Shown here: positions 14,844 through 21,128 of the stretch, in pieces
How the letters are laid out: each line of letters starts with the position of its first letter
How positions within the stretch are numbered: the first letter of the stretch is position 1
Source of the DNA: a virus
Taxonomy: Duplodnaviria > Heunggongvirae > Uroviricota > Caudoviricetes
IMG/VR virus record: IMGVR_UViG_2534682222_000006
Coordinates: 1 to 21,128 of that record
Strand: one strand, 5' to 3'
Length of the DNA stretch: 21,128 nucleotides
The notes under the pieces: model-generated
Databases searched by the model: none
What the model was told of the DNA's origin: nothing
Seen by the model: only the letters and a program-made list of their open reading frames with translations
Position numbers and translations under genes: made by a program

Positions 14844-15068
14844 ATGTATACAGTTGGGTTTGGTTGGATCTTCGTCGGTATTTTTATTGGGTTAATTCTC
14901 TGGTTTTTCATCAACCGCGCCAGCGTCAGAGCGAACAGGCCGGTTGAATTACTTGAGTCTATCGACCAGAAATTATCAAAAATAGTAGATCCAAACTTCG
15001 AGGCAAATAACAAAGACCAGTCGAAAGAAAACTACCTTGAAGAAGCAAGGAAAAAAGCTTGGCTTTGA
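14844..15068 (+). CDS. moron-encoded small single-pass membrane protein, candidate superinfection-exclusion protein (YebO / HK97 gp15-like)
   Basis: 74-aa ORF in an AT-rich insert between K and I, which abut in lambda; AAGGA RBS at 14833-14837; N-terminal hydrophobic helix (VGFGWIFVGIFIGLILWFFI) followed by NRAS and a charged tail; own terminator immediately downstream. The LILWFFINRAS motif is what I recall for E. coli YebO and HK97 gp15 (from memory, unverified). Confidence 0.6.
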   Translation: MYTVGFGWIFVGIFIGLILWFFINRASVRANRPVELLESIDQKLSKIVDPNFEANNKDQSKENYLEEARKKAWL

Positions 15069-15083
15069 GAGCGTAAATTAACA

Positions 15084-15106
15084 AACCACCTACGGGTGGT
15101 TTTTTT
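15084..15106 (+). terminator. intrinsic terminator downstream of the moron ORF
   Basis: Stem AACCACC (15084-15090) / GGTGGTT (15095-15101), loop TACG, T tract 15100-15106. Confidence 0.65.
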
Positions 15107-15117
15107 ATGGGGGCAGC

Positions 15118-19235: not shown

Positions 19236-19538
19236 ATGGCTTATGGAATACAGACCTGGGATGCTTCGGGAAACCCCAACAACTACGGAATCAAGCCCGT
19301 TTCCGTTGTTGGACGTATACAACTTGCCGCCGGACAAAACTCCGGCAGCTGGTCTTTCACGGTACCCTCAGGAATGAAGGTCGGTTTTGCGCTCTCACTT
19401 GATGAAGGAGGTAACAGCGTAGGGAGGAGCATTGTCGCGTCAGGGAACACAATAACCGTAACCGCAGCCTCTTCTGTGGGCCTGGGTAATTACCCGGCCT
19501 CTAAATGTGAGGTGGTCGTTTTCATGGAGAAAGCATAA
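19236..19538 (+). CDS. hypothetical protein, translationally coupled to J (possible tail-tip accessory protein)
   Basis: 100-aa ORF starting 1 nt after the J stop (TGATATG); GGGGGTG SD-like sequence upstream; same strand and tight packing imply co-expression with the tail genes; no lambda counterpart at this position (lambda has lom after J). Confidence 0.6.
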   Translation: MAYGIQTWDASGNPNNYGIKPVSVVGRIQLAAGQNSGSWSFTVPSGMKVGFALSLDEGGNSVGRSIVASGNTITVTAASSVGLGNYPASKCEVVVFMEKA

Positions 19539-20212
19539 TGGCCGAATTTGGCGCGATGATATTAATGGATAACGGGAATCCCTTTGTAACGCCACAATCA
19601 ACGCCTTTCTGTCTTTACGGGAAGTATACCTTCAATTCATCCGCGAATGGCAGTTCTCAGCAGGTTGCTCAAAATATCGCTTTAAACGCTGATTACCCAG
19701 TGATGGTTTTTATCAAAACCACCAATACAGCACAGCCCACTCCGGTTATGTCTTACAGGAACGGCGGTAATGTGTATGTTGCTGGTGTTAATCCCTACAA
19801 CCAAAGTTTCACTTTAACGGCGTACGTTTTTGCCATATTCCCGCAGATATTACCGAAATGGGGTTTGGCAATATGGGATGCGAGCGGAAAGCTTGTGTTA
19901 ACTAATGAGTCCCGTGTGCTATCAGACCTGCAGACGGTTGGCACGCCTGGTGCAAACGGCGGGATAAATATTGACCAGACGCTGAGCGGGTCATGGGCCG
20001 TTGCACCTGCTCAGTTGGGTCAGACCATCATTGTGAATAATTCAACCCAGCCTCCGACTATCTACACGATAAATGCTTATTCTTCATGCAGGTTTGACGG
20101 GGCCAATACGAGGATAAACGCAGGGGGGACCTCCACTGGGGCAGGTTCACCTGGAGGGGGAACGAATACTGGCATTTCATTAACCGCCATAAATACAGCG
20201 GCCTATGATTGA
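19538..20212 (+). CDS. hypothetical protein (Gly/Thr/Asn-rich), translationally coupled to the upstream ORF
   Basis: 224-aa ORF; start overlaps the upstream stop (TAATG); GGAG upstream; contains the motif WGLAIWDASGK, related to YGIQTWDASGN in the upstream ORF; Gly-rich C-terminus; visibly lower GC than J. Confidence 0.6.
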   Translation: MAEFGAMILMDNGNPFVTPQSTPFCLYGKYTFNSSANGSSQQVAQNIALNADYPVMVFIKTTNTAQPTPVMSYRNGGNVYVAGVNPYNQSFTLTAYVFAIFPQILPKWGLAIWDASGKLVLTNESRVLSDLQTVGTPGANGGINIDQTLSGSWAVAPAQLGQTIIVNNSTQPPTIYTINAYSSCRFDGANTRINAGGTSTGAGSPGGGTNTGISLTAINTAAYD

Positions 20213-20261
20213 TTGATCGTTTTTAGCGATCAATAACATAATATTGATCTATCCAATCAAT
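20208..20261. promoter_or_regulatory. cluster of ATTGAT/ATCAAT inverted repeats with three GATC sites (candidate operator or Dam-sensitive control region) upstream of the lipoprotein gene
   Basis: ATTGATCG (20212-20219) N7 CGATCAAT (20227-20234) perfect 8-bp inverted repeat; second ATTGAT (20243-20248) N7 ATCAAT (20256-20261); tandem ATTGATTGAT at 20208-20217; GATC at 20215, 20228 and 20246. Confidence 0.4.
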
Positions 20262-20323
20262 TATACCCACCAGAATTGTATTGGTATCGTCTAAGATACT
20301 GAATTCCTCTGGATACTATCAAA

Positions 20324-20557
20324 ATGAGAAAACTGATTATCTGCATGGCAGGCGCTGTCATGCTTACAGGATGCGCTGGCGTAATTGAGAAACAGGAACC
20401 AGTTTGCAGCGGCACTGCAATCGTTGGCGGTCAGGAAACTACGGTTCAGATTTACGGTGTGCGTAAACAAAACAACCAGACGCAGTACCGGGCTGGATAT
20501 CCTTTCAGCTGGCGCTGGGTAAGTGCGAATACATTTACCGAAACAACCTGCAAATAA
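20324..20557 (+). CDS. small lipoprotein, candidate Cor-like superinfection exclusion protein
   Basis: 77-aa ORF with lipoprotein signal peptide and lipobox (MRKLIICMAGAVMLTG|C); a small lipoprotein gene between J and the tail-fibre gene is where cor lies in phi80/N15/HK022-type phages (established knowledge, sequence identity not verifiable here); no clear SD, so the start is uncertain. Confidence 0.55.
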   Translation: MRKLIICMAGAVMLTGCAGVIEKQEPVCSGTAIVGGQETTVQIYGVRKQNNQTQYRAGYPFSWRWVSANTFTETTCK

Positions 20558-20578
20558 CCCACTACGCTTAAACATAAA

Positions 20579-20601
20579 CCTCGCTCCGGCGGGGTTTTTT
20601 T
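20579..20601 (+). terminator. intrinsic terminator downstream of the lipoprotein gene
   Basis: Stem CCTCGC (20579-20584) / GCGGGG (20589-20594) with one G-U pair, loop TCCG, T tract 20595-20601. Confidence 0.6.
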
Positions 20602-20617
20602 ATTGCCTGGAGAAAAT

Positions 20618-21128
20618 ATGCTTTATAACACCGGCACCATCGCCATTAATGGAAATACCGCCACCGGGACGGGTACAAACTGGACGGCACCGGCCAGCCA
20701 GGTCCGCGCTGGCCAGACGATCATCGTCATGTCTAACCCGGTGCAGATGTTCCAGATTTCATCTGTGAACAGCGCCACGTCAATGACGGTTACGCCTGCC
20801 GCTTCCCCGGCGCTGAGCGGCCAGAAATACGCCATTCTGGTGTCAGACATTATCTCCGTGGACGGACTGGCCCAGGCAATGTCGCAGCTCATCAAAGAGT
20901 ATGACGAGAACATTGGTGCGTGGGAGACGTTCGCCACAACCTCAGCCAACCAGAACATTACCGTTACGATCAATGGCACCAGTTTATCAATCCCGGCTCT
21001 TGGGAAATTACTGCAGAAGGGGAGCAACGGAGCTTTGCCGGTTAATCAAGGTGGTACCGGCGCAACGAATGCCGCAGACGCTCGCACAAACCTTGGTTTG
21101 GGAGAAGGTTCGGCATTACCCGTTGGGG
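20618..21128 (+). CDS. tail fibre protein, N-terminal part (truncated by window end)
   Basis: Open frame from ATG 20618 (GGAG at 20608-20611) to the window end with no stop (170 codons by my hand translation); not in the ORF track because it lacks a stop; Thr/Gly/Asn-rich sequence with a ...GGTGATNAADARTNLGLGEGSALPVG motif typical of phage tail fibre shafts. Confidence 0.6.
   Translation, partial: MLYNTGTIAINGNTATGTGTNWTAPASQVRAGQTIIVMSNPVQMFQISSVNSATSMTVTPAASPALSGQKYAILVSDIISVDGLAQAMSQLIKEYDENIGAWETFATTSANQNITVTINGTSLSIPALGKLLQKGSNGALPVNQGGTGATNAADARTNLGLGEGSALPVG

Follow-up and report, generated by a model that had tools for sequence, protein, structure and literature searches.

A cor superinfection-exclusion gene with a putative promoter and a terminator of its own in the tail region of a lambdoid phage or prophage

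The open reading frame at 20324..20557 (+) of the analyzed window, the whole 21,128-nucleotide stretch of Caudoviricetes DNA studied here (IMG/VR record IMGVR_UViG_2534682222_000006), is, on the basis of its sequence, cor, the superinfection-exclusion/lysogenic-conversion gene of phi80/N15/HK022-type lambdoid phages. The gene identity, the lipoprotein features of the product, the architecture of the cassette, purifying selection, and a fold resemblance to Llp, the lytic conversion lipoprotein of phage T5, are established here. The whole explanation, consisting of identity, expression from the prophage, and inactivation of FhuA, is held with high confidence; the periplasmic binding and allosteric mechanism, drawn by analogy with Llp, would be the likelier account of how Cor acts. 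All findings on this cor gene have already been published, and they are correct but ordinary. The coordinates of cor, its signals, and its neighbors are collected in Table 1.

Table 1. Features of the cor region and of the companion gene at 14844 (window coordinates)
Feature	Position	Strand	Evidence
YebO-like gene, 74 aa, between tail genes K and I	14844..15068		Pfam match
J-type central tail fibre/host-specificity protein, 1151 aa	15779..19234	+	ORF; annotated host specificity protein J in matching records
gp22-like gene, 100 aa, first of extended cor cassette	19236..19538	+	PHROG 557, E = 3e-36
gp23-like gene, 224 aa, second of extended cor cassette	19538..20212	+	PHROG 425, E = 1e-80
AT-rich nested inverted repeats, ATTGAT(C)/(G)ATCAAT	20204..20265	.	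inverted-repeat search; between gp23 stop and cor promoter
Putative extended -10 of cor, TGGTATCGT	20282..20290	+	phi80 FN582354 minus_10_signal and transcription start mapped by alignment
cor coding sequence, 77-aa precursor and stop	20324..20557	+	ORF translation, family matches, dN/dS
Lipoprotein signal peptide, residues 1-16	20324..20371	+	lipobox pattern; also annotated in phi80 record FN582354
Mature Cor lipoprotein, 61 aa	20372..20554	+	predicted cleavage before Cys17
Rho-independent terminator of cor	20576..20601	+	9-bp stem, GC-rich core, T7 run
Side tail-fibre gene stf, 5' part, runs off window	20618..21128	+	PHROG 12714/1591 tail fibre, E down to 1e-83; annotated in matching records

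A preliminary description of this DNA had put the gene forward as a Cor-like candidate, and similarity searches against the Cor family returned a clear match. The equivalog model NF047972 of NCBIfam (“phage exclusion lipoprotein Cor”; curated cut-off 31 bits) was matched over positions 1-76 of its 78 positions with 140.9 bits, i.e., 110 bits above the cut-off, and PHROG 1119 (“Cor superinfection exclusion protein”) was hit by the 77-aa product with E = 7e-37. By tblastn against 50,697 phage records, the amino acid identity was 100% to Cor of phi80 (CBH95076), mEp213, and HK225, 79% to the HK022/HK75 type, and ~60% to Cor of Salmonella phage ES18; for Cor of T1-like and other virulent siphophages it dropped to 35-44%. 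The identical 77-aa sequence is furthermore encoded by mEp237, HK140, and mEp043. The HK022/HK75-type proteins, N15 gene 24, and ES18 gene 32 belong to the same family and share length, lipobox, cysteine pair, and the slot between gp23 and the tail fibre, with N15 cor being clearly diverged from the gene of the window (dN 0.285).

On DNA level, positions 20150-20700 agree fully (100%) with phage mEp237 and to 95.3% with phi80. The cor coding sequence, the terminator, and the start of stf are base-for-base the same in the window, phi80, and mEp213, and the differences from phi80 (about 20 substitutions) are confined to the ~110 bp upstream of cor, a region in which mEp213 and mEp237 are identical to the window. 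The same cor allele is carried in chromosomal prophages of 49 out of 5426 complete E. coli genomes, annotated as “cor: phage exclusion lipoprotein Cor”. A large protein collection holds 113 homologous clusters, nearly all of them named Cor, from Escherichia, Enterobacter, Salmonella, Klebsiella, Cronobacter, Rahnella, and relatives. As the product is identical to phi80 Cor, a transfer of the Cor function from phi80 should be as safe as annotation allows.

The product starts with MRKLIICMAGAVMLTGCAGVIEKQ, ends with TTCK, and reads in full MRKLIICMAGAVMLTGCAGVIEKQEPVCSGTAIVGGQETTVQIYGVRKQNNQTQYRAGYPFSWRWVSANTFTETTCK. The canonical lipobox noticed earlier was recovered at residues 14-17: judged by pattern only, the signal peptide combines an n-region with two K/R, a hydrophobic h-region, and the lipobox L14-T15-G16-C17 (LTGC), predicting a mature protein of 61 aa and 6.8 kDa before lipidation, with Cys at its N-terminus and Ala at position +2. 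In the Lol pathway sorting rule, Asp at +2 serves as the inner-membrane retention signal; with Ala at this position, mature Cor thus lacks it. Among 41 Cor homologues Cys76 is invariant, and Gly16, Cys17, and Cys28 are conserved in at least 90%. A disulfide is presumed between the conserved Cys28 and Cys76 of the precursor (Cys12/Cys60 of the mature protein). The core motif QIYGVR..QTQYRAGYPF.W.W is present, and I43, Y44, Q52, T53, G58, P60, and F61 are invariant within the same 41 homologues. Codon-level comparison gave dN/dS values of 0.115 versus HK75 cor and 0.224 versus ES18 cor; consequently, the frame is under purifying selection and represents a real coding gene.

The AlphaFold model of Cor is an all-beta small barrel with pLDDT >90 over residues 31-77, and its best structural neighbor in the PDB is T5 Llp in the FhuA-bound form (8A60 chain B; also 7QJF). 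Judged from this model, both proteins appear to share the same fold, with 13% identity in the structural alignment, while phmmer as well as hmmsearch with a profile of 41 sequences against all PDB sequences, including 8A60 and 7QJF, gave nothing meaningful and no Llp at E <= 10. T5 Llp binds the periplasmic face and the plug of FhuA, thereby closing the loops EL7/EL8, which was shown for Llp only; its mechanism is solved, whereas that of Cor is proposed by analogy. The two also differ in their setting, Llp being expressed early by a virulent phage and encoded beside the gene of the receptor-binding protein, whereas cor is probably a prophage moron.

According to the literature on the family, Cor proteins inactivate FhuA, so that FhuA-dependent phages are excluded; upon expression of Cor-family members, T1/T5/phi80-type phages were excluded, ferrichrome uptake was reduced, and protection against colicin M was gained. 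For the gene of the window, we propose that the 77-aa precursor would be exported, lipidated on Cys17, and cut by signal peptidase II, and that the resulting beta-barrel-like Cor of 61 aa, probably clamped by the Cys28-Cys76 disulfide, would bind the periplasmic face and the plug of FhuA. FhuA is a TonB-dependent transporter, and the binding of Cor would lock it in a state in which phage receptor-binding proteins can no longer dock onto its extracellular loops. Such a cell would then resist T1, T5, phi80, N15, HK022, and the mEp phages as well as the carrier phage itself, and it would be expected to take up less ferrichrome and to be protected from colicin M.

An alternative leaves the identity as Cor untouched and assumes that the protein does not act in an Llp-like manner, either by requiring an interaction of Cor with further abundant outer-membrane proteins (OmpA, OmpC, OmpF, OmpW, LamB, Slp), or by a non-allosteric occlusion of FhuA, instead of a 1:1 periplasmic binding to the FhuA plug. 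We consider this unlikely, in respect to FhuA-bound Llp being the single best structural neighbor of Cor in the PDB, the parallels of Cor and Llp in size, lipidation, and terminal disulfide pattern, and a published AF3 model of a T1-like Cor together with FhuA, in which a confident periplasmic complex overlaps the Llp site (PMC13164509).

Regarding transcription, a weak extended -10 promoter belonging to cor itself would start the transcript and a dedicated terminator would end it, a combination by which a repressed prophage could express the gene. During lytic growth, antiterminated late transcription would read through the cor terminator into stf. For cor, the phi80 record FN582354 lists a -35 and a -10 together with a transcription start, the latter ~8 nt past the -10 and near window position 20298. 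The motif TGnTATnnT appears at the same place upstream of cor in all four aligned phages (window, phi80, HK75, N15), with varying surrounding bases. Its block in the window is composed of TGn and TATCGT (TATTGT in phi80) and accompanied by a poor -35, which is the reason why a generic sigma-70 scan remained silent on this site. A cor promoter at 20282-20290 is plausible, and the earlier idea of an own upstream control region holds in part: the extended -10 is common to the four phages, but the promoter annotated in phi80 was not called by the generic scan. Two other candidates were not adopted, namely TTGATC-18-CATAAT at 20213-20242, returned by the generic scan with a -10 that is not conserved in phi80, and the -10 annotated in mEp213 (GATACT, ~7 nt before the ATG).

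The downstream terminator had been predicted correctly, with the T run ending exactly at the proposed position 20601. Its 9-bp stem (20576-20597, 5 GC) begins 19 bases past the cor stop and merges into a T7 run at 20595-20601; the fold reaches -17.6 kcal/mol (z = -2.9 versus shuffles), and the records of phi80, mEp213, and mEp237 carry this terminator as an annotated feature. In the biology of lambda Q, late transcripts are antiterminated. A terminator located right before the essential late gene stf makes sense only if this applies to the late transcripts here and the terminator serves the prophage transcript. ES18 cor (L004 1501-1743) likewise lies between gp31 and the tail fibre, on the strand opposite to the tail genes. 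Due to this inversion, the late promoter cannot transcribe ES18 cor, and an own promoter is implied there. The inversion is direct evidence of cor as a mobile, separately transcribed unit. Lysogens of HK022, N15, phi80, and mEp167 were reported to be protected, and this protection in turn means that cor is expressed from the prophage. Taken together, the terminator, the shared extended -10, the ES18 inversion, and the protected lysogens support a moron-type expression of cor.

These observations have to be weighed against a mainly late lytic use of cor as in virulent T1-like phages, by which progeny would be spared from cell debris and competitors blocked during infection, with a non-functional upstream promoter and without a role as prophage-expressed conversion gene. 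The location of cor inside the late tail operon in the same orientation, the poor -35 at a site uncalled by the generic promoter scan, and the virulent Drexlerviridae, which also possess cor and deploy it early or in the course of infection (PMC13164509), point in this direction. However, the protection of the lysogens requires prophage expression, the terminator directly before stf fits a non-antiterminated transcript only, the extended -10 recurs in four out of four aligned phages, and ES18 cor lies antisense to the tail operon, rendering a mainly late lytic role improbable. Late lytic and prophage expression of cor are not mutually exclusive. A generic small lipoprotein ORF or chance ORF with no exclusion role, a reading which could draw on the absence of a Cor family from Pfam (sub-threshold matches to DUF4223 and MiAMP1 only) and of any PADLOC model matching Cor, gp22, gp23, or the 14844 product, is effectively refuted at sequence level by the identity to the founding Cor protein of phi80, the 110 bits above the NF047972 cut-off, strong purifying selection, and the 113 homologous clusters nearly all named Cor.

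The position of cor between J and stf, recognized in the preliminary description as that of the phi80/N15-type phages, was confirmed: two post-J genes and the tail-fibre gene starting at 20618 flank it, and the order J-gp22-gp23-cor-tail fibre is common to the window, phi80 (genes 21-22-23-cor-stf), mEp213, HK75, N15, and ES18. The gp22-like gene occupies the position of phi80 gene 22, N15 gene 22, and ES18 gene 30, and the gp23-like gene that of phi80 gene 23, N15 gene 23, and ES18 gene 31. Neither of them matched any entry in Pfam, NCBIfam, or PADLOC; their PHROG labels are “outer membrane protein” (557) and “membrane associated protein” (425). In HK97, cor, gp22, and gp23 are all missing and stf directly follows J, and among the phages compared no relative was found with gp23 directly abutting stf. 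A three-gene “extended cor cassette” was associated with FhuA-dependent phages in a 2026 paper (PMC13164509). Thus, the earlier notion of a self-contained cassette is to be modified: cor is probably a separate transcription unit but not fully stand-alone, forming the end of a recurrent gp22-gp23-cor set that accompanies FhuA-dependent tail tips. The last 194 aa of J are 90% identical to phi80 gp21, and FhuA is the receptor of phi80; we infer that the phage of this window would use FhuA as well.

The window as a whole covers the late region, with head and tail genes, of a lambdoid phage or prophage of mosaic build, and no deposited phage is identical to it. The closest matches are mEp237 (95.3% over 95% of the window) and a prophage in an E. 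coli chromosome (98.2% over 96%), followed by HK225 (93%), N15 (89.5% over the head-tail genes), and phi80 (~91.6%, first 8 kb only); in contrast to this mosaic pattern, phi80 and the window agree to 100% in the cor coding sequence and terminator. Rfam families were absent from the whole of window positions 1-21128. Inside the 5' end of stf, the phi80 record FN582354 additionally lists a “gp25 moron” in antisense orientation, complete with a promoter and a terminator. Its counterpart, an 85-aa ORF at 20623..20880 (-), is open in the window and matches no PHROG or Pfam family, and the “gp25 moron” may be an annotation artefact. Both this ORF and a second antisense ORF at 20291..20575 (-) were rejected, having no family support.

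The tail operon had also been suggested to harbor a second exclusion determinant at 14844, giving two in total, and sequence comparison leaves this plausible. The predicted single-pass product of 14844..15068 has one N-terminal transmembrane helix, and the gene is followed by its own terminator (15083-15102 and a T run; feature span 14844-15108). Pfam YebO was matched with 43.5 bits (cut-off 27). The product shares 96% identity with HK022 gp20 and with an ORF that the HK97 RefSeq record does not annotate, and 41% over 44 aa with HK97 gp15, a demonstrated superinfection-exclusion protein. The latter, a YebO-like protein of the inner membrane, was the earliest moron product to be described and blocks the genome entry of HK97 and HK75 (commentary by Cumby et al. 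authors). Like cor and the 14844 ORF, HK97 gene 15 is a small moron-encoded gene within the tail operon, each having its own terminator. The slots differ, with HK97 gene 15 located between the tail chaperone and tape-measure genes and the 14844 ORF between K and I. In comparison with Cor, HK97 gp15 is unrelated in sequence, resides in the inner membrane, and targets DNA entry rather than the receptor.

Immediately upstream of the putative cor promoter lies the block of nested inverted repeats at 20204..20265, with a GC content of 38.5% (about 50-55% in the flanks) and three GATC (Dam) sites within 35 bp. It includes the perfect 8+8 palindrome ATTGATCG-N7-CGATCAAT, which occurs nowhere else in the window (0 expected by chance). 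Conservation of the repeats in phi80, HK75, and N15 is partial, and compensatory changes are absent: phi80 retains the inner palindromes and HK75 largely does so, but in phi80 the outer stem carries three changes that are not compensated. Despite the significant fold of this stretch (z = -4.8 versus shuffles), these three changes make a conserved RNA structure unlikely, and the block points to a DNA motif rather than to an RNA structure. FhuA is under Fur regulation. A Fur box upstream of cor was rejected, the best match of 11/19 being reached by 1434 of 2000 shuffles.

We see a slim chance that the block at 20204-20265 acts as a switch, e.g., as a methylation- or regulator-dependent operator setting the Cor level in the lysogen. 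Such a control of cor is not mentioned in the literature consulted on Cor. If true, this operator would balance phage resistance of the lysogen against lost ferrichrome uptake.
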